A stretch of 64,000 nucleotides of DNA from assembly GCA_021812345.1 (NCBI GenBank), contig JAKANP010000002.1, positions 6,394 through 70,393 of the forward strand, given 5' to 3'. Origin of the DNA: a bacterium. GTDB lineage: Bacteria; Patescibacteriota; Minisyncoccia; UBA6257; JAGOQP01. Shown piece after piece: positions 6,634-36,312 of this stretch (positions are counted from its first letter, which is position 1; each line of letters opens with the position of its first letter). The position numbers and the translations under genes are program-made. The notes under the pieces were generated by a model. That model ran no database searches. It was given only the letters and a program-made list of their open reading frames with translations, and was not told the DNA's origin.

Positions 6634-7962
6634 TTATTCAAATTCAATCAGCTCTTTTTTAGGGATAACTTCACGGCTGGTGGGGATAGTAAAATAAAAA
6701 GTAGTGCCCCTGTTGACCTCCGACTCCACCCAAATTCTGCCTCCATGACGAGTGATGATATTTCTAGCTATATAAAGACCCATGCCAGTACCGTCGGGAG
6801 AAAACTTAACAACATTATCGGCTCTGAAAAATTTGGTAAAAAGCTTATCCATTTGATTTTGAGGCACTCCAATACCGGTATCTTTAACGGAAATTTTTAC
6901 AAACGGTTCATTATCTTCTTTTTCCGCAGAAACGGTGACTTCCCCATTTTCAACATTATATTTAATAGCATTATCCAAAAGATTAGACAGAACCATATTC
7001 AATTTCTGTTGATCCACAAAAACATCTATTGAAGGCTCCTGGGGTTTGGCAAAATAAAGTTTGATTCCATACTGCTTGGCAATAGTATTGGTTTGAGCCA
7101 AAAATTCTTCAAGATAAGAAACAATATTTATCTGTTCAAACTGATAACCAAATCTTCCTTCTTCTATTTTAGAAACATCCAAAAGATCGTTTACGGTTTT
7201 AAGCATTTTTTTTGCGGCCGCAAAACCGGTAGTCACAAGATCTTTTTGATCCGGGGCCAGTTGACTGCTATTTAAACTTTCTAAGGCCCAGTTTATTGCG
7301 GTGAGCGGAGTTCTTAATTGATGAGCCGCAACCGTTATAAATTCCGTTTTTGATTTTAAAAGCTCTATCTCTCTGGTTCGGTTGGTGATTAATTTAACAA
7401 AACCGATATTGTTTCCTTCTTTATCAAAAATTCTGTCGGTAACCACTCTCAAATCAAGTTCCGGCGCATCAAAAGAAACGTCGATTACTTGAGGATAAAC
7501 TCCGGGTTCAGAATGCGTTATCACCGCCGGAGCCAGTGAAGAAAAAACCACCTGCGCCAAAATTTTAAATTTTGGGTCATTGGCCATTGCAGCCGATAAT
7601 TTTATTCCTATAATATCTTCTTTTTTTATAGAAAATATTTCTTGCGCCGCCGGATTAAAAGTTATCACTTCAAAATCATTGCTATAAGCCAAAACTCCTA
7701 TATTAAGGTGCTCAATAATGCTTGATACTTGTCCGGTTTCCGCTTTGACTCGAACATTGGCTTTAGAAAGCCGAAAGCTTAAAAAAACCATCAAAAACAA
7801 AATAAACAAGAGACCGCCAACAACAATCAGCGCTATTCCCGAAGGCAGGTATATAAAACTTATAACAAGAATAATAATCAAAATCGGCGCCAAGTAAAAA
7901 ACAGGCCGAAATTCCGGCTGAGTTAAGTATTGAACAAATTTTGAAGAATTTTTATTTGCCAT
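6634..7962 (-). CDS. Sensor histidine kinase (two TM helices, PAS-like, HisKA and HATPase_c)
   Basis: H-box AAHQLRTPLTAI, N-box LLDNAIKY, G-boxes DTGIGV and GTGMGL. The N-terminus has two TM helices. Confidence 0.8.
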   Translation of the reverse strand: MANKNSSKFVQYLTQPEFRPVFYLAPILIIILVISFIYLPSGIALIVVGGLLFILFLMVFLSFRLSKANVRVKAETGQVSSIIEHLNIGVLAYSNDFEVITFNPAAQEIFSIKKEDIIGIKLSAAMANDPKFKILAQVVFSSLAPAVITHSEPGVYPQVIDVSFDAPELDLRVVTDRIFDKEGNNIGFVKLITNRTREIELLKSKTEFITVAAHQLRTPLTAINWALESLNSSQLAPDQKDLVTTGFAAAKKMLKTVNDLLDVSKIEEGRFGYQFEQINIVSYLEEFLAQTNTIAKQYGIKLYFAKPQEPSIDVFVDQQKLNMVLSNLLDNAIKYNVENGEVTVSAEKEDNEPFVKISVKDTGIGVPQNQMDKLFTKFFRADNVVKFSPDGTGMGLYIARNIITRHGGRIWVESEVNRGTTFYFTIPTSREVIPKKELIEFE

Positions 7963-7968
7963 CTTGCA

Positions 7969-9192
7969 TTAGTTTAGATTGAAAACATACAACTGACCAT
8001 CCAATCTGTTAACAAAATAAAGTTGTCCGCCCGATTCTTTAATATCGGAAATATCCAAATTTTCGTTTGGCGCATTAAATAGAGTAGAAACTTCGTAACT
8101 TTGCAAATCCACTTGATAAAGTCCGTCGTTAAAATAAGCTCCGTTCATTAAATAATCATCCGGTAAAACCAAATCGGATCCCTTACTATTTGAAAAAGAC
8201 AACGCGCAATAAGCAAATTTGGAATCGTATGAAAAAGAACATTTTTCCGGAATAGTACTCAAAACAATATCGGATAATTTAGTTCCTGATTTATTTGTGA
8301 GAGATACGGCGTAATTTTTTGAATCCGTTGAAATAAATTTCATCGCATAATCGAATGGATAGGAAAAAATCGCTCCAATCCCTTGTCCTTGATCAAATAG
8401 ATTGATTGTTTTTTTGTTTAAATCCAAATACCATATTTGTCCGGAATAATTAGAAGATTGCTTTGGCATCATAAAAATTTTGTTTGTATCCGGCCATAAA
8501 ATATTGGAGTCCAATATATTCAAAGATGACAGCAAAGTTATTTGATTTTTTGTAGCTAAGAGATTAAACGAATAGATATTAGCAATTCCTCCTGAATATT
8601 TTAGAATAGCTATTTTCTTACCATCCGGAGAAAAATCAAAAGAACTCACTCCCGAACTTAATTCTTTCCAAATTCCGGTGCTTGAATCAAACAACACCAA
8701 ACTTCCGGAATTAAATTGGATAGCCACATATCTCCCATCAATACTTTGAACCAATTTCAACGGAACTCCATAATTTGACGTGGAAATAATTTTTTCTTGA
8801 AGAGGTCCGGTTATTTCGGAAACTTCTCCTTTATTATTTATGTAAAAAACTCTTTCAGACACGGAAGCCGAAGAAGACGAGGTTGAAGTTGAATGATAAA
8901 TCCAATAATCAAATATATTGTCGTTATTAGTCAGCAAAGATAATTTCTGTTTTTGCTGGTCATAAATTGATTGAGTTGTCGTATCCGTTTGATTCGAAGC
9001 CGAAGACAGGTTGGATAAATTATTTGACGGATAATTTTGATTAGAACCGGAAGATGATACCGGAAGACTTCCTGATTGTTGATTTTGATTTGGAGTTATA
9101 ACCGATGATGATTTTTTATATCCAAAATAAACTCCCACTCCTATGGCAATTACTATAAAAATAATTATTAAAATTAAAATTGTTTTTTTCAT
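7969..9192 (-). CDS. Membrane-anchored PD40/TolB-like beta-propeller protein (hypothetical), distal gene of the T4SS-like locus
   Basis: Start chosen at internal MKKTILILIIIF (ATG at 9190-9192), which gives an N-terminal TM anchor and removes the overlap with the upstream gene. A low-complexity S/N/Q linker is followed by SPDGKKIAI-type PD40 repeats. Confidence 0.4.
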   Translation of the reverse strand: MKKTILILIIIFIVIAIGVGVYFGYKKSSSVITPNQNQQSGSLPVSSSGSNQNYPSNNLSNLSSASNQTDTTTQSIYDQQKQKLSLLTNNDNIFDYWIYHSTSTSSSSASVSERVFYINNKGEVSEITGPLQEKIISTSNYGVPLKLVQSIDGRYVAIQFNSGSLVLFDSSTGIWKELSSGVSSFDFSPDGKKIAILKYSGGIANIYSFNLLATKNQITLLSSLNILDSNILWPDTNKIFMMPKQSSNYSGQIWYLDLNKKTINLFDQGQGIGAIFSYPFDYAMKFISTDSKNYAVSLTNKSGTKLSDIVLSTIPEKCSFSYDSKFAYCALSFSNSKGSDLVLPDDYLMNGAYFNDGLYQVDLQSYEVSTLFNAPNENLDISDIKESGGQLYFVNRLDGQLYVFNLN

Positions 9193-9208
9193 CTGTTGTT
9201 TTTTATAA

Positions 9209-10222
9209 TTACCATTGAGCATGAATATGCGCTCCCGATTTTCTTTGATTGCCGTTAAAAACCGAACTGCAGTCATCATAAAATGTTCCGCTTATTTCAC
9301 ATTTTGCAAAAGAAGCCCCATTTTGAGTTAATGTCTTAACAAACGAATTCCAAACATTGGGATCATTGGAAGACGTAACAACAATGTCCATCGCTCTGCC
9401 TTGATAATGATATGAATTGGTAGCGTGTTTTCCTCCGGTTAAACTCGTAACCATAAATGGCGTGGGAGTGGGGCTTACACAGCCTGTAGATTGCGGAGCC
9501 AATCCAGTTCCAAGATCTACGGTCCCTTGAGAATAAGGACCGCAAACCAAGCTATCTAAAGTTTCCAGCATATTTATGCTCAAATTAACATTGCCGCTGG
9601 TTCCGCCCCTGGAACAGCTGCAGCTCGGGCTACAAACGAAAGGCATAACGCCATTACTAACATCATTAATAATTGACGAGGCATCGGTGCCGGCCGAACA
9701 ATCGGCGCTTTTTGAAAAAGCTACCTCTCCCGGACTTTTTGACAGAATACTTGAAGCTATTTGAGATAAGGTGCTTCTTTGTTCCTGGGTTCCCCCCGGT
9801 TCTCCCGCTCCGCCACTAGTTGGCATTGCGGGAACAGATTGAGATGTGAAGTTTAAACTCACCAGTTGAGGATTTATGGTATTTAAAACAAGATATGAAC
9901 CGGCTAGCAATAAAAGTCCCCAGATGGCATTGGTTACTCTATCTTTGGCGTCTCCTAAGGCAGATTCATTTCCTCCGCTGGCAAGATATTTTATACCGCC
10001 ATAAATAATCATAATAATCGCCAGAGTGCCGGAAATTCCTATGGCATAGTCGTAAAGTCCGGATATAAAAGATGGGATTGAAGAACTGGAATTTAAAAAT
10101 GCAGGATAATCAACATTCACGGCAGTATTAGCAGATTGTGCGGCAAATATCGGCAATGATGAAACAAATTTCAACCCGAAGACAATTCCAAATAAAATTA
10201 AACTGTTATATTTTTTTCTCAT
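9209..10222 (-). CDS. T4SS pilin-like (VirB2/TrbC-type) domain fused to a LAS-family (peptidase M15/VanY-like) cell-wall peptidase domain
   Basis: N-terminus has a signal peptide, a hydrophobic helix, IYGGIKYLASGGNESALGDAKDRVTNAIWGLLLLAGSYLV (the same motif as the six pilin paralogs at 34-36 kb), then a second helix. The C-terminus has SYHYQGRAMDIV (H-x6-D) and HIHAQW (H-x-H), the zinc ligands of LAS/M15 D,D-peptidases. A Cys-rich linker CSPSCSCS joins the two. Confidence 0.5.
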   Translation of the reverse strand: MRKKYNSLILFGIVFGLKFVSSLPIFAAQSANTAVNVDYPAFLNSSSSIPSFISGLYDYAIGISGTLAIIMIIYGGIKYLASGGNESALGDAKDRVTNAIWGLLLLAGSYLVLNTINPQLVSLNFTSQSVPAMPTSGGAGEPGGTQEQRSTLSQIASSILSKSPGEVAFSKSADCSAGTDASSIINDVSNGVMPFVCSPSCSCSRGGTSGNVNLSINMLETLDSLVCGPYSQGTVDLGTGLAPQSTGCVSPTPTPFMVTSLTGGKHATNSYHYQGRAMDIVVTSSNDPNVWNSFVKTLTQNGASFAKCEISGTFYDDCSSVFNGNQRKSGAHIHAQW

Positions 10223-10223
10223 A

Positions 10224-10949
10224 TTATTGAATAGTAAAACTTATAGAATTTTGAGCCGACTCTATCGGGTTTGTGGAATTTTGAGCGGTTAGTCCGACAT
10301 TTATAACTCCTGAATTAATATTTTTTCCGAAATTAATCGATAAGGAAAATGGATCGTTTGCAATCCCTCCGGATTTTTGACTCCCAACAGTCCATGTAGG
10401 AACTATATTATACAAAGAATCGGTATTGAAAAAGAATGGCGCCGACGATAAATCAACCGTTGAATTGGCGCTGACGATATTGCTAAAATTTTTATTAAAA
10501 ATAACTATCTCCGGCTTAACAATCGGTATCGTAATATAATTATCAACAAAAGACACGCTTCCATCAGACGGATTTTCAACCTCCGAAGAAACTCTGACAT
10601 TCAAACTATCCGACGCTGTCCACTTATTGATGGTGAAAGAAATTGATTTTAATCCTTCTCCTTGGGTGTAATATTGATTATTGACATACCACTTAACCAA
10701 GCGATTGGAAAGATCCAATACTTTTCCTAAGTTAGTTTTGTCCTGACCGATTAATTCAAAAGACATATTCACTCTAGACCCGCTACTTGGCAAAATTTTA
10801 CCTTGATACCAATAAGGAGCAAAGCTATTAGCGCTCCAAGAGGACATAAATTGAGGGTCGGCCGCAAAAACACTCGCAGGCGAAAAAATCCTGAAAAATG
10901 CCGACAAAAATATAAAAGCAATTAAGTATTTTGTTAAACGAATTGCCAT
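10224..10949 (-). CDS. Secreted hypothetical protein (signal peptide), T4SS-locus associated
   Basis: N-terminal signal peptide MAIRLTKYLIAFIFLSAFFRIFSPASVFA. Rich in beta-strand-type residues and abuts neighbours with 1-2 nt spacing. Confidence 0.4.
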   Translation of the reverse strand: MAIRLTKYLIAFIFLSAFFRIFSPASVFAADPQFMSSWSANSFAPYWYQGKILPSSGSRVNMSFELIGQDKTNLGKVLDLSNRLVKWYVNNQYYTQGEGLKSISFTINKWTASDSLNVRVSSEVENPSDGSVSFVDNYITIPIVKPEIVIFNKNFSNIVSANSTVDLSSAPFFFNTDSLYNIVPTWTVGSQKSGGIANDPFSLSINFGKNINSGVINVGLTAQNSTNPIESAQNSISFTIQ

Positions 10950-10998: not shown

Positions 10999-11547
10999 TT
11001 ATTTTATTAATTTTTTTGAACTCATGGCTTTGCCTGCTATGCCAAATGTTTTATTGAAAGACTCGGGATTGTTCGTGCTCCAGATCGTCAAAATAGCGGC
11101 AACAGTAGTTATCGGCAACCAATCTATACCCGGTATAAGTTCTACCGCTTGAGCAATAATGTTTTTACCGACGCTATTAACTCCTTTTATAAAAAGCCAG
11201 GCGATGATAATCGGAGCAAAGACAAATCTCGTTACCCATATTCCATCAAGAATATCCGAAACGATAGAGATGCCCATGTAAAATATTATTTCAATCAGAT
11301 CAAATCTTGGGCCACTTGATGCAGATGAAGAAATTTGACTCTCTTCATTTTCATCCTCCTCTTCGTCCGACTCTTCTTCGTCATCCTCGTCTTCATCTTC
11401 TTCGTCTTCATCTAAGATTTCCCGATCATCATCCTGAGATTCTTGCTCTTCATCGTCCTCATCTTCATCATCTCGAGAATCGTCTTCTAATAAATCATCG
11501 GAAGAAGCATCTTCGTTATTATTTTTATTTTCTTTTTCTTCATCCAT
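10999..11547 (-). CDS. Membrane protein with extremely acidic (D/E-rich) N-terminal tail, hypothetical
   Basis: About 80 N-terminal residues are almost entirely D/E, followed by 3-4 predicted TM helices. It sits immediately downstream of the VirB4 gene. Confidence 0.4.
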   Translation of the reverse strand: MDEEKENKNNNEDASSDDLLEDDSRDDEDEDDEEQESQDDDREILDEDEEDEDEDDEEESDEEEDENEESQISSSASSGPRFDLIEIIFYMGISIVSDILDGIWVTRFVFAPIIIAWLFIKGVNSVGKNIIAQAVELIPGIDWLPITTVAAILTIWSTNNPESFNKTFGIAGKAMSSKKLIK

Positions 11548-11562
11548 TTTTATAAAGAATCA

Positions 11563-13320
11563 TTAAACCAGACTTTCTTCTTCTCCCAAAAGTTGCTGGG
11601 GTTTAGTAGTAACAATTTTATCTTCAAAATAAGAGGCAACAACTTGAATGGCAACGTGTTTTAACCCCGCGAAAAACAACCCCTGGCCGACACCGGCTTC
11701 AAGCAGTAAATTTTTCTCGGCTTCGGTCAAATTAAACGCTTTAGCAATATTATCTATACTGGTTGGAGATTGTTTTAATAAAAGCTGTAAAGACGAGTTG
11801 GTGACTATCGGTTTTCCATACGGCGAATTCAAAAAGTCATCCACTTCTTGAGTTATAGTTGTAATTCCTAAATAATATTTTCTTCCTCTTTTTGCCAAAG
11901 AAAACAAGAACGAAGCTCCTTCGGGATATTTCATAATCACCCACGCCTCATCAATGACCAAAATTCTTCTTTCCATTTGAGATTTAACGACATTCCAAAT
12001 GAAATTTAAAACAACATACATAGCCACAGGTCTTAATTCTTCCTCTAAATCTCTCATTGAAAAGACAACTAGGCGGTTATTGATATCTATATTGGTTTTT
12101 TGATTAATAAATCCGGCATAGGTCCCTTGAGTATATTTATAAAGACGCTCGGCCATACCTCTTCCTCCTTCCATATTTCTCAAAACTGTTTCAAGGTCGG
12201 ACAATGTCGGTGGCTCAAGATTCAAAAAATTAGGATTACTCGGAACAATATCTCTTGAAGCATAGGTCTCGGTTAGGGCTCTATCCAAAATACCTTCCTC
12301 TTCAACGGTCATATCTCCAAGCATTATTTTTAATAATCCGGTAAGCGTTAAAATGTTTGATTTAAAAACATCGGCCGGGTCTTCTCCTTTGGGAACAATG
12401 GGAATATCAAAAGGATTAACGTGCTGGTCGGAAGTGAGTGAAATTTTAAAATATGTTCCACCGACGGTATCACAAAGATTTTTATATTCATTTTCGGGGT
12501 CAATAACCATCACTTTTGTGCCCATCATCATGGATCTTAGAATTTCAAGCTTGGTGGCGTAAGATTTTCCGGAACCTGATTTTGCAAAAACCACTTGGTG
12601 AGCGTTTTCCAAAGAAAATCTGTCAAAAATTATCAAAGAATTGTTATGCAAATTAATACCGTATAAAATTCCATCCTCGGACGTAAGATCCATGGAAACA
12701 AACGGGAAAAAAGAAGAAATCGGTCCGGAATTCATCGGCGTTCGCACTGCTAATTTATCCTCCCCAATAGGTAGAACCGACTCAAATCCTTCAATTTGTT
12801 GGAAGATGGCCGGTTTTATATAAATAATTTTACTCTCAAAAAGATTGGTGATGACTTCTTCAAGCTCATTTAATTTTTCCAAAGTGTCTCCATAAATGGT
12901 TATATAAACAGCGGAATCAAACAGACGCTCTTGCGCTTGCTGAAGCTTGTCTCGCAAAGCTTCAATATCGGAAAAGGCGGTTTCCAGCATCGGGTCACGG
13001 ACAAAACCTTTCGATTCTTTTTCGGATATTTCGGCTTCGATTTGAGCCGCTTTTTTTCTTAAATTTCTTAGAGCCAAGGCGGTGTCTATCGGATGAGCAA
13101 AAATGGAAATATCAAAAAGTTTTGCCAGATTAATTATCGGAGAAAACCATCCGCTAGAAAGGAATCTTGGGTAAGAAAAAACAAACAACGTCTTGGCAAA
13201 TTTATCGCCTATTTTTATATAATTTTGGTCAACCTCCAAAGCCGCCGGAGAAATTAAATTTTTGACTTCGGATTCTTCCTGCCCCGTGTATGGTTTTATA
13301 ACTTTTATTTCTTCACTCAT
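11563..13320 (-). CDS. virB4: VirB4/TrbE/CagE-family type IV secretion ATPase
   Basis: Walker A FAKSGSGKSYATK and Walker B RILVIDEAWVIM, with conserved VirB4 C-terminal blocks. Start set at MSEEIKVIKP (ATG at 13318-13320), which avoids overlap with the upstream ORF. Confidence 0.8.
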   Translation of the reverse strand: MSEEIKVIKPYTGQEESEVKNLISPAALEVDQNYIKIGDKFAKTLFVFSYPRFLSSGWFSPIINLAKLFDISIFAHPIDTALALRNLRKKAAQIEAEISEKESKGFVRDPMLETAFSDIEALRDKLQQAQERLFDSAVYITIYGDTLEKLNELEEVITNLFESKIIYIKPAIFQQIEGFESVLPIGEDKLAVRTPMNSGPISSFFPFVSMDLTSEDGILYGINLHNNSLIIFDRFSLENAHQVVFAKSGSGKSYATKLEILRSMMMGTKVMVIDPENEYKNLCDTVGGTYFKISLTSDQHVNPFDIPIVPKGEDPADVFKSNILTLTGLLKIMLGDMTVEEEGILDRALTETYASRDIVPSNPNFLNLEPPTLSDLETVLRNMEGGRGMAERLYKYTQGTYAGFINQKTNIDINNRLVVFSMRDLEEELRPVAMYVVLNFIWNVVKSQMERRILVIDEAWVIMKYPEGASFLFSLAKRGRKYYLGITTITQEVDDFLNSPYGKPIVTNSSLQLLLKQSPTSIDNIAKAFNLTEAEKNLLLEAGVGQGLFFAGLKHVAIQVVASYFEDKIVTTKPQQLLGEEESLV

Positions 13321-13333
13321 ATATATATTAAAA

Positions 13334-14020
13334 TTAATTTGCCGGCTGACTTTCTGTCCCGGGCTCTTTGGCCAGCTGTTGTTTGATAGAAGAGGGATTG
13401 TATAAATTATAATAAAGTTCGGTAAGTTCCTGGTCATTTAAAACAACCGCTCTTAAACCGATTCTTTCTATTCCCGATGCGACCTGATCTATCCTCTGCC
13501 TTAATTGAATCAATTGCTGTTCGTATGATTCCTGCTTGTCTTTTTTGCTGTTTTTGGGTTTTCCAAATAATCCGGTAATACTGCTTGTTATTTTTTTGGC
13601 GCCGGCGCTTTCATAAGGAACGACAACAAAAAAAGTTTTGGTCATTATCTCGTTTTCCTTAACAAACCCTTTGATGTATTCAATGTATTCGTCTATTTGA
13701 TTTCTTAGCAACTCGCTCTCTTCCTGCTGTCTTCTTTGGGCCATTTTAGCAAGATAATTGTCTATATTTATTTTTCTGGAATGAATAACTATCTGCACCG
13801 AAAAATCAACGGAATTTAAAAATTCCTGATAATTGGCGGTAATAATGTTTTGCTCCTCTTCGGATTTCAATTCAAAATTTATCCCCGAAACCATAATCAC
13901 CGACCTTAGAGCTCCGCTTTTTAATTTAACAACGCCGTCTTTTATCTCTTCTATATCAACAAATTGCTGAGTTGAATTGGGAGCGATTTGAGTGGTTGTT
14001 TTTTGTTTTTCTTCGGCCAT
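13334..14020 (-). CDS. VirB4 N-terminal-domain-like protein encoded as a separate ORF (possible split VirB4)
   Basis: The sequence ...VKLKSGALRSVIMVSGINFELKSEEEQNIITANYQEFLNSVDFSVQIVIHSRK... resembles the N-terminal substrate/membrane-proximal region that precedes the ATPase domain in full-length VirB4/TraC-type proteins. It ends 13 nt before the ATPase gene, and the ATPase ORF at 586 aa is short for a VirB4. Confidence 0.45.
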   Translation of the reverse strand: MAEEKQKTTTQIAPNSTQQFVDIEEIKDGVVKLKSGALRSVIMVSGINFELKSEEEQNIITANYQEFLNSVDFSVQIVIHSRKINIDNYLAKMAQRRQQEESELLRNQIDEYIEYIKGFVKENEIMTKTFFVVVPYESAGAKKITSSITGLFGKPKNSKKDKQESYEQQLIQLRQRIDQVASGIERIGLRAVVLNDQELTELYYNLYNPSSIKQQLAKEPGTESQPAN

Positions 14021-14068: not shown

Positions 14069-14605
14069 CTAACGATAATCGATTCTTCGCGCCACTTCTT
14101 TTTCTCCACTCATTCTTCTAAATACCTGATACTGTTCCTTGATTTCCGAGATTGGCTTTTTGGGAACCACCTTTTCTCTTTTGGGAATCGGATTTTTTGT
14201 CGTTGTCATGTCTTGCCACAATTTTGAAATTTGAGAAATTCCGGAAGATGCCAAGTCCAAAGCGCTTCTTTTGGATTCCACCGTTTGTGATTTAACTTGA
14301 GGAATTTCAAAAGTTTCTTTTATTACCGGCCTTTTCCACAAGAACATTTTAGGTTGCCAAAAAAACTTGGCCGCTAAAAACGCAAGCATATAAAGAGGGC
14401 GCCCATTGATTTTGATGAAAGCAAAAGAAATACCGAAAGACATCAAAACTATAAAAATAAGCACCCAAATTGCCGTATTTAAAATAAAAAACAGAAAAAA
14501 AGAAACCAAAGCCGGGGCCGCGATAAAACCAAATTGCTTCAGCGTAAGCGGACCGACTATTTTCGATTCAATATCAATAAATTGCGGAACTTCAAATTGC
14601 GCCAT
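14069..14605 (-). CDS. PrgI/VirB3-like small membrane protein
   Basis: MAQFEVPQFIDIESKIVGPLTLKQFGFIAAPALV followed by two TM helices, the PrgI-family layout. It sits directly upstream of the VirB4 genes, as VirB3/PrgI does in T4SS operons. Confidence 0.5.
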   Translation of the reverse strand: MAQFEVPQFIDIESKIVGPLTLKQFGFIAAPALVSFFLFFILNTAIWVLIFIVLMSFGISFAFIKINGRPLYMLAFLAAKFFWQPKMFLWKRPVIKETFEIPQVKSQTVESKRSALDLASSGISQISKLWQDMTTTKNPIPKREKVVPKKPISEIKEQYQVFRRMSGEKEVARRIDYR

Positions 14606-14675: not shown

Positions 14676-15926
14676 TTATTTTTTGATGGTCAAATTACCC
14701 AAATCAATCATTCCGCCTCCATTGTTATTGATTTTATCTTCCGGCTTGTTTCCCAAAGGAAATTTGTTCGTCTGAGGATTTAAAGGCGCATTCGAAACTG
14801 GCGTTTTAGAATTTTCAAAAGCATTGTTTAAATTATTTGTTTTTATCTGATTATCTAAAGTCGTTTTGAAATTGCTGAAATGAACCGTTTTAACCGGCTC
14901 TTCCTCATATTTTTTTACCACAACCGGGACCTTTTGAACCGGTTGATTGGATATCGGTTTTATCTGCGATGGCATTTCTATTTTTGCCGATGAAACAAAA
15001 TTTTGAGGCTTTGCGGTCCCAAATGATTTCATATCGGAACCAAAGAATCCTCCAAAAGAAGACGGCGCAAAATTTTTAATTGTTTGCGACTGAGCAATGC
15101 TTTGAGATTCCTCTTTCTTGTGAAGAATCACCGGACCCTCGGGGAAAGATTGCTTAGGAGTTGCCTGAGGGGATTGATTGGGCGTCTGATTTAAGGAATT
15201 AGCCGGTTGATTGGTCATATTAATTGGCTGACTAGCGGGTTGCTGGTTGATTTTATTCTCCTGATTAATAATTGGTTTTGCAAAAGTTGGAGGCACATTC
15301 GGATTGAAGCCAACTTGTTTTTGGGTGACCGGATTGACGGAAGAATTTGGATTATTAACACTTGACGGCGACAAAAAGTTTTTTGACGCTTGAGCGCTTG
15401 AATTGATTTGAATATTTTCCAAAGAAACAGGCTCCGGTTCTTTGGGTTTGGATGGAGTTCCTTCAATTTTTAATTTAATCGGCTGAGACGATGAAGGTTG
15501 GTTTTTTAAATCAACTATTTCCGGATTTTTTTCTTTGAGCACTACTTGTGGAGAGACTTGACCCGGCTCTATAATTTCGGATTCTTTAACAGTCCCAAGT
15601 TTTGATTTTACATAATTTTCTTCTATGTCTTTTTTAAAAGGAGATAATATTTTGTTGTCAACTTCATGATATATTTCCAAAGCCAAACGCGGATCTACTT
15701 GAAGATCATCTCTTATTTCTTTGTATAAATCTTCGGTGTGAATAAGGCCGTAAAAAACTCCTCTAATTAATCTGCCTAAACTTGAAATTTTATTGTCGCT
15801 CAAATTATATTTTTTCTGTATAGAATCTATTTCGTTAAAAACTGTTTGAGAATGAGAAACATCCCGCAAAATATCGGGCATATTATTCCATCTATCCAGT
15901 ATTTGTTCTCTTGTTGGTGCGTACAT
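14676..15926 (-). CDS. Hypothetical protein, globular N-domain and P/Q/N/S-rich low-complexity C-terminal half
   Basis: About 140 aa structured N-terminus, then a long proline/glutamine/asparagine-rich segment. Lies between the VirB6-like and PrgI-like genes. Confidence 0.35.
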   Translation of the reverse strand: MYAPTREQILDRWNNMPDILRDVSHSQTVFNEIDSIQKKYNLSDNKISSLGRLIRGVFYGLIHTEDLYKEIRDDLQVDPRLALEIYHEVDNKILSPFKKDIEENYVKSKLGTVKESEIIEPGQVSPQVVLKEKNPEIVDLKNQPSSSQPIKLKIEGTPSKPKEPEPVSLENIQINSSAQASKNFLSPSSVNNPNSSVNPVTQKQVGFNPNVPPTFAKPIINQENKINQQPASQPINMTNQPANSLNQTPNQSPQATPKQSFPEGPVILHKKEESQSIAQSQTIKNFAPSSFGGFFGSDMKSFGTAKPQNFVSSAKIEMPSQIKPISNQPVQKVPVVVKKYEEEPVKTVHFSNFKTTLDNQIKTNNLNNAFENSKTPVSNAPLNPQTNKFPLGNKPEDKINNNGGGMIDLGNLTIKK

Positions 15927-15946: not shown

Positions 15947-18151
15947 TTATTTTTTTGAACCTCCGGCAGGTGGTGCTGATGGAGCACTACTAGATGAGCT
16001 TTCTCTATATGCATTTCCCGCAGCCATATCCCCCAAAACGCTTTTTTCCACTCTATTTCCTAAACGTTGTCCTACTAAACCAAATTCTCTGAGTTGATCC
16101 TGGAATCCTTTGAGTTCAGTAGAATTTAATTTATCCACCCCACTATCATACGCTTTCTTTAACGATCCGGTTAGTTCAGCCTCCTTTGTCACGGCTTTTA
16201 TTAAAGTCTTCATTAAATATGTTTGCTGATCCGGTTTTACCCCTCTAAGCGCCCCGTAAAATCCATTACCCGATGTTTCGTTGTTTATATAATTGGCGTG
16301 AGCAAGACGGTCATGTTTTTCTGATTCCGAAAGGCTTTTTTCATCAACACCGAACATATTTTGGCTGATAATTCTCTGATTGTCAGAACTATTATATTTA
16401 TTATCAAAGGCGGTCCTAGCATCACTCAACCCTTTTTCGGCACTACTAAAAGGCTCCAATTCCTTTTTATAGTCATCGTCAGAAATTTCTCCTTTCAAAG
16501 CCCTTAATTCCAATTCAGTCCTTTTTTTAATACCATCAGAAGTGTAAATAGAGTCATATTTTTTACGAGCTTCTAAAGTTGATCTATTGTCGCTAGCCGC
16601 AACATAAACTTGATCGGCAGCTTTTTTATTTCCTTCTCTTTCCAATTTTTCTCCGAAAGATACCAAGGACTCTCTCCCGTCTTTATCATTTCCATACCCC
16701 AAACTTTTTATAACACTCGGATCAATTCTGCCTTTTTCAGCAAGAGACTGCATCAATCCCTCTTTATCTTGACCACTGACTGATGACGCTAATTTCTTGA
16801 CATCTTCCGGATTTAGAGCGGCATACATTCTTCTGCGTTCTTCTCTGTACTCCGTCTCTTTTTTGCGAACAGATGTTTCACCTCGAGTTAGCCCCCTTGC
16901 AACTGCGCCAGCCCCAAGAAATCTTCCGACCCTAGTATTGGCGGCCCACTGAGCTCCTTTTTTTACCGGAGTTATCATTGGTCTGCCGACTCTTGCCGCA
17001 CCTCTTGTAGTTTTATTTTTAGCCCATCCTTGAGCCTTACTGGTAGCTTTGTTCGCTTGTTTTAATATAAAACTGCTTCCGGCCATTCCTAAACTTTGAG
17101 AAATTTTAAGACCTCCTATAAGTATCGCTCCGGACATTAAAGTAAGCATTATAGCATCAAATCCGTGGACCCCTCCCGTCTGATCAGGAGAGCCACTTAG
17201 GCCCGTAAAACCAAGGGACGATGAATTGCTCATCATTATCATTGATAATTTTACAAAAAGAAGCATTAGCGGAGCGAAAAATACCCATTTTAAAAAATGA
17301 GTCCACCAATCACGCCAAAATCTGTAAGCAGAAGGAAATATCCACAAAAGCCACGCGCCAGGAGCCAAAATAAGCAAAAACGATATATAAAAATATCTCA
17401 ATAAAAACATAATTGCCATAACCAACAAAACAAAAGAGACGAAAACCGCAACCAATATTTGAATAAAAAGATTTATTACATCTCCTATGTTTTGTATATC
17501 GCCCTGTAAATCTTTTGAAGCCACGTTCATCACGGTAGAATTTGACGTTAATACACTACTTACCTTACTGTTTTCAAGAATCATCATGCTGACCTTGTCG
17601 CTTACTTGCGCGGGGTCGTTTCTATTTGCTATGTTTTGGTTTAATGTGATATCTTGCAAAAAAGAATTTGAAAAAACGTCCGAAACTTTAATAATCGCTC
17701 CACCGATCATCAAACTAAAATTTACAATCAAAGCGGCGACCACCAATTTCCATAAGATTGATTGCGCTTGATAACTTTTTATTCTCAAAATAGTAGCGAT
17801 AGCAATAATGATTATCCCCAGAACAAATCCTAAATTAGCCAAATCCCTAAAAGTAGTCCAGCCTTTATATACAAAACTGTTTTGGTCAAAAATCTGGGTA
17901 GTAATTTTTTGAGTTAAAGTCAAAGAAGCGGCGGTTAAAGTGGCAGCGAGCTTCATTATCCCCGCCACTAGAATGTCTTTTATCGTAAGCATTACTTTCT
18001 GAAAAATATCGGAAATGGCGCTTCCAGCAACACTACCTAGACCAAAGATGGCAGCGTTGGCTTCTTTATAAGAAAAAGAAAACATCAAAAACAACATCAG
18101 GCAAAAAATGATGATCTTGTTGTATTTTTTGAATATTTTATTTCTTTCCAT
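15947..18151 (-). CDS. VirB6/TrbL-like polytopic inner-membrane protein with long hydrophilic C-terminal extension
   Basis: Signal peptide, then at least 6 TM helices over about 350 aa, then a roughly 370-aa charged cytoplasmic tail. This size and topology is typical of TrbL/VirB6 in T4SS loci. Confidence 0.5.
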   Translation of the reverse strand: MERNKIFKKYNKIIIFCLMLFLMFSFSYKEANAAIFGLGSVAGSAISDIFQKVMLTIKDILVAGIMKLAATLTAASLTLTQKITTQIFDQNSFVYKGWTTFRDLANLGFVLGIIIIAIATILRIKSYQAQSILWKLVVAALIVNFSLMIGGAIIKVSDVFSNSFLQDITLNQNIANRNDPAQVSDKVSMMILENSKVSSVLTSNSTVMNVASKDLQGDIQNIGDVINLFIQILVAVFVSFVLLVMAIMFLLRYFYISFLLILAPGAWLLWIFPSAYRFWRDWWTHFLKWVFFAPLMLLFVKLSMIMMSNSSSLGFTGLSGSPDQTGGVHGFDAIMLTLMSGAILIGGLKISQSLGMAGSSFILKQANKATSKAQGWAKNKTTRGAARVGRPMITPVKKGAQWAANTRVGRFLGAGAVARGLTRGETSVRKKETEYREERRRMYAALNPEDVKKLASSVSGQDKEGLMQSLAEKGRIDPSVIKSLGYGNDKDGRESLVSFGEKLEREGNKKAADQVYVAASDNRSTLEARKKYDSIYTSDGIKKRTELELRALKGEISDDDYKKELEPFSSAEKGLSDARTAFDNKYNSSDNQRIISQNMFGVDEKSLSESEKHDRLAHANYINNETSGNGFYGALRGVKPDQQTYLMKTLIKAVTKEAELTGSLKKAYDSGVDKLNSTELKGFQDQLREFGLVGQRLGNRVEKSVLGDMAAGNAYRESSSSSAPSAPPAGGSKK

Positions 18152-18161
18152 ATAATTTTAT

Positions 18162-19703
18162 TTATTGAGCGGGGCAAGAAAAAGACGATAAGGCGCTGTT
18201 AAAATTACTCAACATCGTTTCGGTTGTGCCTGTTTGTCCGGAGCCGGCCATTTGCGCATCACCAATTATCGTCTTGTTGGCATCATTGTTTATAAAATCA
18301 TTATATGTTGATTGAGCTTGTGCAACGGCGCTGTCATCCGAATAATCGAGATTATTAAGTGTGTCCAAATTAGCCGAAGCTTCGCTTGCCACAGAGGAAA
18401 ATCCTTGTTGAAAAGTATTTAACGCGTCTAAAGCCGATGAAATTGTCATTTGCACCATATTACCGCCTCCCTGGTCAACAGAAATTAAAGAAGAAGAACA
18501 GGTATTATTGAAGTTAGTTGCCAAAGCAATGTCGGCATTAACAGCCGGAAGCAAAACGCCATTTACATAATTACCCACATCAGTATAAGCTTTAACAGCA
18601 TCGGACAAAGATTGCTTGTTGGCGCTTATTTTGTCATTTTGAATATTTTGCGGAATGTCTGAATTATTAATTCCTTGATTTGTCCCGCTAACCGACCATT
18701 GGCTTCCGTTGCTACTTACATGATTTAATCCTTCTGTTAATATTCTAGACGCTAAAGCGTTCAAAATTGCCGCTAAAGCGCTCTGGACATTTGAAGAATA
18801 CTGAAAATTGGCTCCCACTGCCTGCATTATCGCCCCGGCCGCTACACTCCCGGGAGTTTTCATTTCCCAAGACGTACACTCACTCTGGACAGCATAATTA
18901 ACACAAGCATCGTGTTGCGGGTCTCCTTGACATGTACTTTCGGCATCAGCTAAAGCTTTTTGGTCAGTGCATACTTTGTTGTCGGTAAATCCTTGTGAAG
19001 CGACCGCTTGAGTTTGCGCGATAGTGCTTTGAAGCGCTATTTTTTTATTTACCGCATCTTCAAGATTGCTCCATGCCAATGCCGAATCAACCTGAGGAGA
19101 AATTAAAGCGTCAAAGGCCGACCACCCCATATCGGTAAAAATTGATACCGGTCCGTTAGGATTTTCTATATTTCTTTTTATGTCGTCAAAGGTGCATTGC
19201 GTGGGAACTCCGTAGTATTGGTCGCCACTGCCTCCATATCCATACTGCTGAGCCAGGATTCCCAATCTCGCCTGGAATTGGACACCCAAAGGAGCGCAGA
19301 GATTAACGGTCCCGTTTGATAAATTATTAACATATTGTATTGCCGTACCTACCCCGATGTCGGTAGCGGCTTGTCCCAAATATTGCCCCCAATCGTTTAT
19401 ATATCCTGAACCGCTACCGCTCCCTCCAGAACTGCCATTTATTTGAGCTACGATATCTCTTTGCATTTTTGAAATAACAATGGCCACAATTATATCCCTG
19501 TAATGTTGTTGAATTTCTGTCCAGGTGGTTGCTAGATATTTTTGCAAAGCCATTTGTAATATGGCCGGAATACTACCGATTTGAAATGTTGGCCAACCTG
19601 CCTGAGCCACCTTTGGGCCAGAATTAAAAACTCCAAAAAAGTTTACGGAAATCACGGAACAAACAACAAACAGAATAATTATTTTTTTTAAAAATGAATT
19701 CAT
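18162..19703 (-). CDS. Secreted hypothetical protein (signal peptide, Gly/Ser linker), T4SS-locus associated
   Basis: N-terminal signal/TM MNSFLKKIIILFVVCSVISVNFFG, a GSSGGSGSGSG linker, and a Cys-containing extracellular domain. It overlaps the upstream gene by 4 nt, suggesting operonic coupling. Confidence 0.4.
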   Translation of the reverse strand: MNSFLKKIIILFVVCSVISVNFFGVFNSGPKVAQAGWPTFQIGSIPAILQMALQKYLATTWTEIQQHYRDIIVAIVISKMQRDIVAQINGSSGGSGSGSGYINDWGQYLGQAATDIGVGTAIQYVNNLSNGTVNLCAPLGVQFQARLGILAQQYGYGGSGDQYYGVPTQCTFDDIKRNIENPNGPVSIFTDMGWSAFDALISPQVDSALAWSNLEDAVNKKIALQSTIAQTQAVASQGFTDNKVCTDQKALADAESTCQGDPQHDACVNYAVQSECTSWEMKTPGSVAAGAIMQAVGANFQYSSNVQSALAAILNALASRILTEGLNHVSSNGSQWSVSGTNQGINNSDIPQNIQNDKISANKQSLSDAVKAYTDVGNYVNGVLLPAVNADIALATNFNNTCSSSLISVDQGGGNMVQMTISSALDALNTFQQGFSSVASEASANLDTLNNLDYSDDSAVAQAQSTYNDFINNDANKTIIGDAQMAGSGQTGTTETMLSNFNSALSSFSCPAQ

Positions 19704-33996: not shown

Positions 33997-34362
33997 TTAC
34001 TGAGTAAGTCCGGAAGACAATGAGTTTTGAACCAAAGTAACCACTCCATAAGAAAGCAGAGCAACTACTATACCGACGATGGCATAGATTAGTTCTTGTT
34101 TGGCTTTTTTGGTTGTTTCACTATCTCCCTTGCTGGTGATAAAGTGAAAAGCTGCCAAAAGAATAAAAAGAACCGCGACAATAAAGATTATGTAATAGAA
34201 CCATTTAACAACAGTAACTAATATCCCAACCCAACCAGATATAGTTCCCGGACCTGTTACTGGACCCAATACCGGCGGAGTTGTAGGTTGAGCAAAAACA
34301 GATACTCCCACAACAAAGAGCAAAATTACCAATCCAATTGACGCAAATATTTTTTTAACCAT
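33997..34362 (-). CDS. T4SS pilin-like protein (VirB2/TrbC-type), paralog 6 of 6
   Basis: From the internal Met (ATG at 34360-34362) there is a signal peptide MVKKIFASIGLVILLFVVGVSVFA, then a hydrophobic helix, AAFHFITSKGDSETTKKAKQELIYAIVGIVVAL, and a second helix. It shares this pattern with the five upstream paralogs. Confidence 0.6.
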   Translation of the reverse strand: MVKKIFASIGLVILLFVVGVSVFAQPTTPPVLGPVTGPGTISGWVGILVTVVKWFYYIIFIVAVLFILLAAFHFITSKGDSETTKKAKQELIYAIVGIVVALLSYGVVTLVQNSLSSGLTQ

Positions 34363-34433
34363 GATTTTTTTATCGTTTACGACCTTTACTTTTGATATAT
34401 TTAATAATAACACAAGTCCAAAATAACTTCAAA

Positions 34434-34829
34434 TTAATTAGCTCCCCTGCTTTGCAAAAACTGGGTTATTAATAACGAGACACCGGTAGAAATAAGAGCA
34501 ACAACTATGGCAATAACAGCATATTTAAGTTGAGCTTTAGCTTCCGCGGCTTTTTTTTCATTGGCTCCGCCTTGAAGAAAGTTATATGCCGCCAAAAGAA
34601 TAAACAAAACAGCAACTACAAAAAATATAATGTAAATCCATCTAACTATGCTGAGTAAGATATACCAAATCTGTGTCACGCCGGTCACAGGAGAAGCAAT
34701 TTGGCTATTTCCAAAAGGATTAACATATCCTTCGTTCACTACGGCAAAAACTTCAAAAATTCCGGTGGTTAAAAATATGGTTATAAATAAAAAAGGTAAA
34801 ATTTTTAATAATGTTTTTTGTTTAAACAT
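34434..34829 (-). CDS. T4SS pilin-like protein (VirB2/TrbC-type), paralog 5
   Basis: Signal peptide, helix, AAYNFLQGGANEKKAAEAKAQLKYAVIAIVVALIS, then a second helix. Confidence 0.65.
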   Translation of the reverse strand: MFKQKTLLKILPFLFITIFLTTGIFEVFAVVNEGYVNPFGNSQIASPVTGVTQIWYILLSIVRWIYIIFFVVAVLFILLAAYNFLQGGANEKKAAEAKAQLKYAVIAIVVALISTGVSLLITQFLQSRGAN

Positions 34830-34845
34830 AAATTTAAATTATTTT

Positions 34846-35214
34846 TTAATAAACTCCTCCACTGCCGATGAATTGGGAAATAATAGCCGATAAACCGGTA
34901 GCAATTAAGGCGACAACTATGGAAATTCCGGCATATTTAAGTTGGTTTTTGGCAACTTCTATTTTCTTTTCATTGGTTCCTCCTTGGATAAAATTATAAG
35001 CCGCCATCAAAATGAATATTACCGCCACCACAAAAAACGCGCGATAAATCCAAATAACAATACTTTTAACGATGGTAAATATATCGTCTGCGCTATTTAC
35101 CGGGGACGCCGTATCGCCGGTATTAAATGGAGCTATATTAACGCTTGCTCCGTAAGCAAACATCGGAGCCAAGGAATAGATAGCCGCCAAAATTAAAAAA
35201 AACTTCTTTCTCAT
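34846..35214 (-). CDS. T4SS pilin-like protein (VirB2/TrbC-type), paralog 4
   Basis: Signal peptide, helix, AAYNFIQGGTNEKKIEVAKNQLKYAGISIVVALIA, then a second helix. Confidence 0.65.
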   Translation of the reverse strand: MRKKFFLILAAIYSLAPMFAYGASVNIAPFNTGDTASPVNSADDIFTIVKSIVIWIYRAFFVVAVIFILMAAYNFIQGGTNEKKIEVAKNQLKYAGISIVVALIATGLSAIISQFIGSGGVY

Positions 35215-35228
35215 ATTTTTAATATTAA

Positions 35229-35546
35229 TTATTTATTTCCCAAAAACGTATTTATTATCGTGGCAACCCCTGAAGCGGTCAAGGCAATAACCAGAGCGAT
35301 AACTGCATATTTAAGCTGAGCTTTGGCGGTTTCTATTTTTTTAGGATTATCTCCTCCTTGAAGATAGTTAAACGCCGCTAAAAGAATGAATCCGACGACG
35401 ACAATATAGAAAGCTTCATACATATAAGTAACGGCTTTTTGCATAAGAGCGATAATATCATCGGCTGTTTGAATCGCGGCAAACGCCACCAATGGAAACC
35501 CGGAAATAATTGCCGCCGCTATAATTGCTTTTGTTTTGTTTTTCAT
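35229..35546 (-). CDS. T4SS pilin-like protein (VirB2/TrbC-type), paralog 3
   Basis: Start at the internal MKNKTKAIIAAAI, which removes the overlap with the upstream gene. Signal peptide, helix, AAFNYLQGGDNPKKIETAKAQLKYAVIALVIAL. Confidence 0.6.
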   Translation of the reverse strand: MKNKTKAIIAAAIISGFPLVAFAAIQTADDIIALMQKAVTYMYEAFYIVVVGFILLAAFNYLQGGDNPKKIETAKAQLKYAVIALVIALTASGVATIINTFLGNK

Positions 35547-35562
35547 ATTTAAATATTTTAAT

Positions 35563-35907
35563 TTATGCCCCAATAAAATTTTTGACTACCGCCGCTATGC
35601 CCTTTGCCGCAAGAACTACCGCCATTCCAATGATTGTGTAAGTAATTGTTTTTTTGCCTTGGGCAAATTTATTTTCATTTCCGGCGGCGCCAAGCATTTG
35701 AAAAGCTCCGATCAACAGCATTATAACAAAAACAGGCGCGGCAAGCTCAACAATAAAAGTGGCGATTTTATCAATCAAATCCGGTATGGTGTTAACTCCG
35801 GATTGAGCTAACGGATTTTGTAAAGCAACTCCTCCGGTATCAGCGGCGCTCACAACCGTTGGCACCCCTAAAATAACGGCAATCGATGAATAAAGAAATT
35901 TTTTCAT
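35563..35907 (-). CDS. T4SS pilin-like protein (VirB2/TrbC-type), divergent paralog 2
   Basis: Signal peptide MKKFLYSSIAVILGVPTVVSA, a helix, GAFQMLGAAGNENKFAQGKKTITYTIIGMAVVLAA, and a second helix. Same architecture as the others with a more diverged motif. Confidence 0.55.
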   Translation of the reverse strand: MKKFLYSSIAVILGVPTVVSAADTGGVALQNPLAQSGVNTIPDLIDKIATFIVELAAPVFVIMLLIGAFQMLGAAGNENKFAQGKKTITYTIIGMAVVLAAKGIAAVVKNFIGA

Positions 35908-35931
35908 ATTATATTTATTATAAACATTATA

Positions 35932-36312
35932 CTATTGTGTCGGCAAATTTAAAAACTTCAAAATAGTGTTAACTAAAAGCCAAGCGCCGAAAGTCAAAAC
36001 TATGCCGATTGCCGCCGCAGTTATTTTTTTCTTTCCGCTTTTAAATTTTCCCTCATCACCGGCGGAAATTGCCATTTCAATTCCTCCCCAGATAATAACA
36101 ATTACCGCCACCGGCGTGACAACATCAGTTAAAGCAAAGGTAACTAAACCTTGAACCATTTTTACAAAATCGGAATAATTGCAAGGATTTTGTCCGTTTC
36201 CTCCGCAATTTACCAAAGCGGCAAAAGATGATGCGGCGTTTATAAAAAACGCCATCAAAAAGAATAAAATTCCATAACCGTATTTCTCGTATTTTCCTGT
36301 TTTATTCAACAT
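35932..36312 (-). CDS. T4SS pilin-like protein (VirB2/TrbC-type), divergent paralog 1 (first in array)
   Basis: Signal/TM region, a Cys-containing segment NCGGNGQNPCNY, a helix, IWGGIEMAISAGDEGKFKSGKKKITAAAIGIVLTFGAWLLV. Same two-helix pilin layout. Confidence 0.5.
   Translation of the reverse strand: MLNKTGKYEKYGYGILFFLMAFFINAASSFAALVNCGGNGQNPCNYSDFVKMVQGLVTFALTDVVTPVAVIVIIWGGIEMAISAGDEGKFKSGKKKITAAAIGIVLTFGAWLLVNTILKFLNLPTQ

Follow-up and report, generated by a model that had tools for sequence, protein, structure and literature searches.

A VirB2-type pilin module fused to a predicted LAS-clan peptidase domain in a type IV secretion gene cluster of Patescibacteria

Type IV secretion systems (T4SSs) rely on dedicated enzymes to open the cell wall, VirB1 lytic transglycosylases in diderm bacteria and PrgK/TraG-type hydrolases in Gram-positive bacteria, and PrgK also contains a LAS-type (LytM/M23) domain. 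The known T4SS pilins are small proteins of ~70-130 residues in their mature form that carry no enzyme. Patescibacteria, also called CPR (candidate phyla radiation), account for much of bacterial diversity, and many of them grow attached to the cells of other microbes. Here, we describe a gene from a 64,000-nucleotide stretch of DNA of an ultrasmall Patescibacteria organism (positions 6,394 to 70,393 of contig JAKANP010000002.1, assembly GCA_021812345.1; the window) whose product joins a VirB2-type pilin module to a C-terminal domain related to the LAS metallopeptidases. The gene lies inside a T4SS cluster, and its product belongs to a large family in which the two modules are almost always found together.

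The T4SS of Patescibacteria is related to monoderm conjugation systems, and PF18895-type pilins near virB4 and pilin arrays are reported in this group (Quinonero-Coronel et al. 2025, PMC12102498). Most Patescibacteria genomes with VirB2 have no recognisable VirB1, and other enzymes may substitute (PMC12102498). Pilin fusions go unmentioned in PMC12102498. The T4SS is essential in Southlakia epibionticum, and so are the pilins of the system (Wang et al. 2023, PMC10633639). SEML1_0007 (1113 aa), encoded directly downstream of virB4 in that organism, is essential and has a C-terminal ECOD 'Hedgehog/DD-peptidase' domain at residues 951-1105, and the next gene, SEML1_0006, encodes lysozyme-like and cysteine-proteinase domains (PMC10633639, Table S2). 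A peptidase domain beside virB4 is already noted in the literature and was not first seen here, because that table lists it. SEML1_0007 resembles the fusion protein in that its gene comes directly after that of VirB4 within a T4SS cluster of Patescibacteria, and in the 'Hedgehog/DD-peptidase' at its carboxy terminus. It differs in length (1113 aa versus 337 aa), and its table entry names no pilin domain. The literature searched contained no published pilin-peptidase fusion, enzyme-bearing T4SS pilin or description of the family, which is not proof of absence, and no structure of a Patescibacteria T4SS pilus.

A preliminary description of the window, made from its sequence, had placed the open reading frame at 9209-10222 on the minus strand. 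Translation reproduced these coordinates exactly and recovered all of the motifs quoted there. An identical protein is predicted in the public assembly GCA_027346585.1 (contig DAIERY010000001.1). A fused gene call or a frameshift artefact is ruled out because the same architecture recurs in 136 independent proteins. The loop GGNESALGDAKDRV between the two pilin helices comprises residues 83-96. The chain closes with HIHAQW and a stop codon, so that HIH (332-334) is followed by AQW alone; with three residues left past HIH, the protein has no Hint autoprocessing domain.

A T4SS pilin module of the VirB2 type forms the N-terminal half of the protein. Pfam PF18895 (T4SS_pilin) matches residues 46-107 at 33.8 bits against a gathering cut-off of 26.6; the TrbC/VirB2 model (PF04956) stays below its threshold for this protein (16.9 bits versus 27.9). 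Hydropathy analysis reveals three hydrophobic segments (residues 7-28, 52-79 and 97-121), and the full-length AlphaFold2 model has pilin-half helices at 49-81 and 86-116. Two of the six pilin paralogues arrayed elsewhere in the window (33997-36312) match this half with E = 7e-11 and 2e-7. The architecture proposed in the preliminary description (signal peptide, helix, loop, helix) is therefore borne out by PF18895, hydropathy, the predicted helices and the paralogue matches. The module shares its signal peptide, two hydrophobic helices and short charged loop with VirB2, TrbC, TraA and the short PF18895 pilins, and like them it is encoded with VirB4, VirB3 and VirB6 homologues. The fusion protein differs from the known T4SS pilins in bearing a 195-residue catalytic-type C-terminal domain. 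VirB2/TraA pilins have both termini outside the membrane, and in the filament these are exposed on its outer face; by analogy, the C-terminal domain of the fusion protein should be extracytoplasmic.

The end of pilin helix 2 carries the motif LNTINPxL (residues 115-121; 9860-9880, minus strand), which is conserved in the long pilins of the related loci L008-L050 whether or not they have a tail and is missing from all six array pilins. The motif may be a hinge or a processing site.

The C-terminal domain is not covered by any Pfam or NCBIfam model above threshold. The single-sequence Pfam matches of the fusion protein are weak (HH_signal, E = 0.044; Peptidase_M15_2, E = 0.3), with scores of 14-15 bits against a threshold of 22.1 for HH_signal (PF01085) and 11-12 bits against 27 for M15_2, and the Pfam scan gives no match to VanY (PF02557). 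The NCBIfam scan returned zero matches for the fusion protein and nothing usable for seven neighbours. The sub-threshold Pfam matches of 41 family members fall on Peptidase_M15_4 (14 members), HH_signal (13), M15_3 (6) and M15_2 (2), and any other Pfam family is matched by just one of the 41. A PDB sequence search with the single protein found Hedgehog N-domains only (E ~0.04). The match to the Sonic hedgehog (Shh) N-domain has E = 7.6e-5 with a 9-sequence profile and E = 8.3e-7 with a 41-sequence profile, with which the M15C peptidoglycan peptidases reach just E = 0.2-1. The hidden Markov model (HMM) alignment places the family pattern GGKH..HY.G.A.D on Shh GHHSEESLHYEGRAVD and 'CE' on Shh 'YE' (E177). 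The aligned pairs are H266 with Shh H135, H272 with H141, D279 with D148, E309 with E177, H332 with H181 and H334 with H183. The combination of H-x6-D, H-x-H and E177 defines the Hh/DD-peptidase group, E177 has the role of general base in Shh, and the motif of the clan as a whole is H-x(3-6)-D plus H-x-H (PMC6027127).

Structure prediction agrees with the profile matches. The full-length AlphaFold model is mediocre, with a predicted local distance difference test score (pLDDT) of 72 and disorder at residues 119-142 and 229-247, and Foldseek searches with it returned helical-bundle noise only, driven by the pilin helices; the domain was re-predicted alone. The domain-only AlphaFold2 model, built from 41 sequences, has a pLDDT of 89.8 and a predicted template modelling score (pTM) of 0.86. 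Its 13 best Foldseek matches in the PDB are all Hedgehog N-domains (probability 0.82-1.00), superposed over 83 columns with a root-mean-square deviation of ~3 Å for most and 24% identity for the best. The next ranks are LysECD7, the RB49 L-Ala-D-Glu peptidase, Ply500, LdcB and VanXYc. Matches to viral models are weak and include M15A peptidases, a Shh-like microvirus protein and tail-associated lysins. The secondary-structure order in the model fits the LAS core, with D279 on strand 277-282 and HIH on the last strand (332-336).

The preliminary description had assigned the domain to the LAS superfamily, a reading that stands on the Shh profile match (E = 8.3e-7) and the Hedgehog/LAS Foldseek matches; LAS similarity was found in the profile searches, whose failure to find it would have spoken against the assignment. 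Its narrower placement in the VanY/M15 family does not hold. The thresholds of VanY, the Pfam M15 families and HH_signal are all missed, which leaves an unmodelled family of the clan. Because profile and structure comparisons match and yet every curated model stays below threshold, the C-terminal domain is, by sequence and predicted structure, a member of the LAS clan (MEROPS clan MD) outside its curated families.

An exhaustive HMM search of 1.84 billion cluster representatives was used to measure the size of the domain family, and conservation was counted in 125 representatives (50%-identity clusters). The family comprises 647 clusters at E<=1e-3 and 201 at E<=1e-10. H272, G275 and D279 are invariant (125/125). 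H266 and H332 are each kept in 124 of the 125, and H334 in 120, with Asp in 4. Position 309 is Glu in 100/125 and Asp in 23/125, an acidic residue in 123 overall. This pattern argues for a functioning predicted metal site. The H-x6-D and H-x-H motifs named in the preliminary description are thus present as H272-x6-D279 and H332-x-H334 and are conserved across the family.

The domain is built from a helical, cysteine-containing half (residues 143-228), a lineage-specific loop and a LAS/Hedgehog-DD-peptidase core (~255-337). The loop, an insertion at 229-254, is confined to this protein and its 81%-identical relative P0002 and adds two extra cysteines. Six other cysteines (175, 197, 201, 203, 308 and 318) are near-invariant, each present in 120-125 of 125; C197 and C203 are found in 125/125 and C201 in 124/125. 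These six could form disulfides or a second metal site. The CSPSCSC segment had been described as a Cys-rich linker between the domains. It lies inside the fold, with a pLDDT of ~96 in the domain-only model and cysteines kept in 124-125 of 125, and because the cysteines are conserved and the region is well modelled, it is a conserved hairpin within the fold. The true linker is the 21-residue segment 122-142, which is variable and gappy in the family alignment.

Among described proteins, the closest counterparts of the domain are the Hedgehog N-domain and the bacterial Hh/DD-peptidases, which share H-x6-D, H-x-H, the SxHYxGRAxDI and HIH motifs and the strand-helix order of the core. Hedgehog proteins are the top profile and Foldseek matches, and the fusion protein has equivalents of Shh H135, E177 and H181. 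The differences are that a core of ~83 residues alone aligns, that the fusion protein has a hairpin of ~20 residues between the Glu and HIH, that the N-terminal half of its domain is distinct and cysteine-rich, and that it has a fused pilin and no Hint domain. The phage M15 lysins (the T5 and RB49 L-Ala-D-Glu peptidases, Ply500, LysECD7) share the LAS core and, in concept, the placement of a wall-cutting enzyme on a penetrating filament or tail. Their similarity is very weak (E 0.2 to >1), and their domains and carrier structures are different. The fusion protein resembles VirB1, PrgK of pCF10 and TraG of pIP501 in that its T4SS gene cluster codes for a domain predicted to degrade the wall, and it resembles the latter two in being anchored in the membrane. 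It differs in its predicted target, a peptide bond where theirs is glycosidic, and in its anchor, which is a complete VirB2-type pilin and not the plain transmembrane helix of the Gram-positive hydrolases.

Fusion of the pilin module to the LAS domain is essentially obligate across the family. A family-specific pilin HMM detects the module directly upstream of the domain in 136/155 domain-bearing proteins, and PF18895 itself is found in 96 of the 125 representatives. Most of the 19 proteins without the module are 92-271 aa long with the domain starting near the N-terminus, and because they are short with the domain in this position, they are probably fragments for the most part. The rule holds in long proteins such as P0097 (1156 aa), which has its pilin module at 882-959 and its LAS domain at 984-1154. 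By analogy with P0097-like proteins, SEML1_0007 may share the pilin-plus-peptidase build. A tandem pair of LAS domains follows a single pilin module in a subgroup of relatives of ~550-640 aa (P0028, P0030, P0031, P0046, P0048, P0060, P0071, P0099, P0100 and P0111).

The fusion gene sits in a T4SS gene cluster, as the preliminary description had proposed: the split VirB4 genes, PrgI and the VirB6-like gene all lie within 8 kb on the same strand. The order from upstream to downstream on the minus strand is p282, p513, VirB6-like, p416, PrgI, the VirB4 N-half, the VirB4 P-loop half, p182, p241, the pilin-LAS gene, p417 and a histidine kinase, all co-directional (Table 1), and neighbouring genes overlap or lie close together. 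These assignments rest on Pfam, orthologue annotations and the synteny map. Pfam and NCBIfam reveal no second recognisable hydrolase domain among the genes of the cluster, and p241 and p417 have no Pfam, NCBIfam or PDB sequence match. With a GC fraction of 0.32-0.44, the window is AT-rich, and the housekeeping genes in it are those expected of a reduced genome. The possibility that the cluster is a mobile or conjugative element was rejected on the housekeeping flanks (RuvA, Fpg, KsgA, UvrD, Mur ligase) and the chromosomal synteny in relatives.

Related loci were collected by scanning one genome per species with the full-length alignment, and most were retrieved through the pilin motif. The resulting 43 loci all come from Patescibacteria metagenome-assembled genomes except for one bin labelled Binatia. 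The order VirB6, p416, PrgI, VirB4N, VirB4C, (p182), p241, long pilin, p417 recurs in ~30 Patescibacteria loci. The p241 gene is always immediately upstream of the long pilin (200-900 aa), whatever its tail type, and p241, the long pilin and p417 look like a conserved three-gene module.

The tail of the long pilin is exchanged between lineages. It is the LAS-type domain described here in L001-L011, L016, L017, L041, L044 and L045. A divergent relative with the pattern TEAWP..H...CH..G.C.DI...NEY...NIHVQW (hhalign against the family, probability 94%, E = 1e-7) occupies the slot in L014, L019, L024 and L033 and also lies downstream of VirB4 in L037 and L046. The long pilin of L042 has a Peptidase_M23 tail in the same slot. 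P0025 (VanY tail) and P0024 (SLT tail) are further pilin-domain proteins, seen here as protein sequences alone. In other loci, the tail is a coiled coil, Cys-rich, or very short or absent. A second tail type, ITxGTExGH..HG..VD..HWHV, is found in P0009, P0011-13, P0021, L013, L015 and L025. It returned nothing in a PDB phmmer search, and hhalign against the LAS family gave 0.3% with 5 sequences and 40% (E = 3e-4) with 8 sequences. It was not accepted as LAS, since the link to the family is just suggestive (40%).

Table 1. Features of the T4SS cluster, the pilin-LAS fusion protein and the pilin array, in window coordinates.
Feature	Residues	Coordinates	Strand	Remarks
p282		19700-20548	-	
p513		18162-19703	-	
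VirB6-like		15947-18151	-	orthologue annotation TrbL_3
p416		14676-15926	-	
PrgI (VirB3-like)		14069-14605	-	orthologue annotation
VirB4 N-terminal (TraC-like) half		13334-14020	-	orthologue annotation
VirB4 P-loop half		11563-13320	-	
p182		10999-11547	-	
p241, secreted, beta-rich		10224..10949	-	stop codon 1 nt before the fusion-gene ATG
Pilin-LAS fusion gene	337 aa	9209..10222	-	ATG start, stop at 9209-9211; protein P0001
Signal peptide, Sec-type	1-28	10139..10222	-	MRKKYNSLILFGIVFGLKFVSSLPIFAA; hydropathy peak 7-28, translation; cleavage site putative
VirB2-type pilin module	46-121	9860..10087	-	helix 1, charged loop GGNESALGDAKDR, helix 2, conserved LNTINPQL end
Flexible Ser/Pro/Gly-rich inter-domain linker	122-142	9797..9859	-	pLDDT <50 over 119-142
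Folded C-terminal domain	143-337 (195 residues)	9212..9796	-	domain-only AlphaFold2, profile, Foldseek
CSPSCSC Cys hairpin	197-203	9614..9634	-	strands 195-197 and 203-205 in well-modelled region
Disordered insertion	229-254	9461..9538	-	pLDDT <50 at 229-247; alignment
H-x6-D motif	266-279	9386..9427	-	HATNSYHYQGRAMD; H272 and D279 predicted zinc ligands; HMM alignment to Shh
E309, predicted general base	309	9296..9298	-	aligned with Shh E177
HIH (H-x-H)	332-334	9221..9229	-	H334 predicted third zinc ligand; last strand 332-336
p417, membrane-anchored (N-terminal)		7969..9222	-	faint beta-propeller matches; ATG overlaps last 14 nt of fusion gene
PAS/HisKA/HATPase histidine kinase		6634-7962	-	directly follows p417
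Six short divergent VirB2-like pilin paralogues, tandem array		33997..36312	-	downstream of solute-binding-protein gene 36384-37709

The fusion protein is probably a zinc peptidase, directed by its pilin module to the place where the T4SS pilus is assembled, where it would cut the peptide stems or cross-links of peptidoglycan. Sec export and signal cleavage would produce a helical hairpin whose two ends lie outside the membrane, as is known for VirB2/TraA, and would place the enzyme in the wall zone. A flexible tether of ~21 residues would link the LAS zinc hydrolase to the membrane-inserted VirB2-type pilin. The pilin module would bring the enzyme to the VirB4/VirB6 pilus-assembly site, a proposal that follows from recognition of pilins by the VirB4/VirB6 machine. 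The enzyme would then cut peptide stems or cross-links and open the wall locally for passage of the T4SS pilus. Copies polymerised into the filament, if any, would carry the enzyme to the wall of the host. The topology, the pilin-based targeting, the substrate and the action on the producer's own wall are all steps that we infer. The wall-cutting function is favoured because the same pilin module is fused to M23, VanY or SLT in other Patescibacteria. Indirect support for a part of such an activity in T4SS function comes from the essential Hedgehog/DD-peptidase gene beside virB4 in Southlakia. The fusion protein is most likely a functional analogue of VirB1 at most and not a member of its family, because Pfam finds no SLT (GH23), lysozyme-like or CHAP domain in it even at E<=10. 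The domain calls of the preliminary description (pilin and LAS) were right, and its functional proposal, peptidoglycan remodelling by a peptidase in the place of VirB1, is reasonable as judged from sequence.

Several observations weigh against a wall peptidase acting at the assembly site. None of the 41 family members reaches the threshold of a curated M15 or Hedgehog model (best E = 2e-4). The Foldseek E-values are just ~1e-2, the superposed part is the core of ~83 residues, and Foldseek finds no PDB structural match for the N-terminal half of the domain (143-228; three helices and the Cys hairpin). Hedgehog ligands, the closest solved relatives, mainly bind although they keep the same residues. 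The slot in the cluster holds a non-enzymatic or tail-less pilin in some lineages, and because these carry a coiled-coil, a Cys-rich or no tail, the enzyme is not universally needed there. In some cases, such as L006, the pilin-LAS gene stands at the head of a pilin array, well away from VirB4. The data are also compatible with an enzyme that the pilus displays and that targets the host.

Such a host-directed lysin is the main alternative and is possible, with clearly less in its favour than the assembly-site peptidase. The protein would be co-polymerised with the array pilins or cap the filament, the pilus would carry the peptidase outward to cut the wall of the host bacterium on which the epibiont sits, much as phage tail-associated lysins act, and opening of the producer's own wall would be secondary. 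The module keeps every pilin feature where a plain anchor would suffice, the fusion is obligate, and in L006 the pilin-LAS gene heads the pilin array. The lineage-wise swapping of tails and the tandem LAS copies are typical of partner-facing proteins, and the weak structural matches to phage Gp5, tape-measure and M15A virion lysins point in the same direction. This alternative requires a pilin with a 195-residue C-terminal domain to enter a VirB2-type helical filament, however, and the cluster in the window is without another candidate enzyme for the cell's own wall. It also counts against a host-directed lysin that few hosts of Paceibacteria-type organisms are known and that some may be archaea without murein. 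Data from Southlakia speak for it: epibiotic growth requires the T4SS, the pilins and the Hedgehog/DD-peptidase gene (PMC10633639), and the separate gene for a PrgK-like lysozyme and cysteine protease could cover the VirB1 role.

More tentative still is an enzymatically armed pilus, in which pilin-peptidase subunits in or on a VirB2-type filament would cut the wall of the producer and then that of the host.

It is unlikely that the domain is a non-catalytic adhesin or ligand with a zinc site that binds, for example, a host surface glycan or peptide, as in Hedgehog. The best matches are Hedgehog ligands and not enzymes, and conjugative and effector T4SS pili commonly bear adhesins. Retention of E/D309 (123/125) and both auxiliary histidines beside the three ligands argues otherwise, as does the presence of known enzyme families (M23, VanY, SLT) in equivalent fusions. 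These residues have decayed in Drosophila Hedgehog, where catalysis is thought to be lost (PMC6027127).

A housekeeping wall carboxypeptidase or endopeptidase that uses the pilin-like hairpin merely as an anchor, with no specific link to the T4SS, is very improbable. LAS/M15 enzymes are common in wall maturation and the cluster is flanked by housekeeping genes; neighbourhood alone is weak evidence because Patescibacteria genomes are compact and co-directional. Set against this are the position beside p241, p417 and VirB4, which is kept down to ~32-40% fusion-protein identity in several lineages while the flanks change, the virtual absence of the domain without the pilin module, and the location of other members in pilin arrays.

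The least credible explanation is a pilin-processing peptidase that trims or releases pilin C-termini, including its own tether at LNTINPxL, as TraF does on TrbC: the conserved NTINP at the junction of long pilins would suit it, but LAS enzymes are not known to take part in pilin maturation, the window's short array pilins are without the motif, and the existence of pilin fusions to SLT, a glycosidase, and to other wall hydrolases suggests that peptidoglycan is what they all act on. The self-directed proteolysis shown by the N-domain of Shh (PMC6027127) also counts in its favour.

The array pilins are presumed to be the bulk pilus subunits. Upstream in the array region, the window encodes a 1085-aa protein with a PG_binding_1 domain (38119-41376, minus strand). 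L006 (5358-9527) has a solute-binding-protein gene followed by an array, as in the window, but there the array is headed by a pilin-LAS gene.

Other features of the cluster recur in its relatives. VirB4 is split into TraC-like and P-loop genes in the window (11563-14020) and in nearly all related loci (examples are L004, L005, L007 and L011), and the halves are fused in L026 only (787 aa). Small unrelated genes (PDDEXK_3, 23S_rRNA_IVP) sit between the halves in several loci. The p182 protein, kept beside VirB4 in close relatives, begins with ~90 residues that are nearly all Asp or Glu and continues with hydrophobic helices. In the window and its closer relatives (L004-L011, L025), the gene immediately after p417 is the histidine kinase, which lies elsewhere in more distant loci; it may regulate the cluster. 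A 1937-aa protein encoded at 43844-49657 on the plus strand combines a staphylococcal-nuclease domain with three lamin-tail domains and is presumably an extracellular DNA-scavenging enzyme. A 1654-aa counterpart is encoded near the T4SS cluster in L007.

The pilin-LAS proteins form a large family that is new within the LAS clan and has a new architecture, the pilin-enzyme fusion, in a system whose study has only just begun. The family numbers at least 647 clusters and lacks a curated model, and its wall-peptidase-type domain is nearly always fused to a T4SS pilin module. It holds a fixed place in the T4SS cluster and supplies the missing candidate for wall opening. Genetics in one Patescibacteria species showed that the T4SS, the pilins and the virB4-adjacent Hedgehog/DD-peptidase gene are essential (PMC10633639), and the pilin-LAS family may explain this already known essential gene. 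If the tentative armed pilus were true, this cutting would be the step for which an epibiont cannot do without its T4SS, and swaps of the C-terminal 'warhead' (this domain and M23, with VanY and SLT on other pilin-domain proteins) would track the wall chemistry of the host. The family offers a testable lead on how Patescibacteria push a pilus machine through the cell wall.

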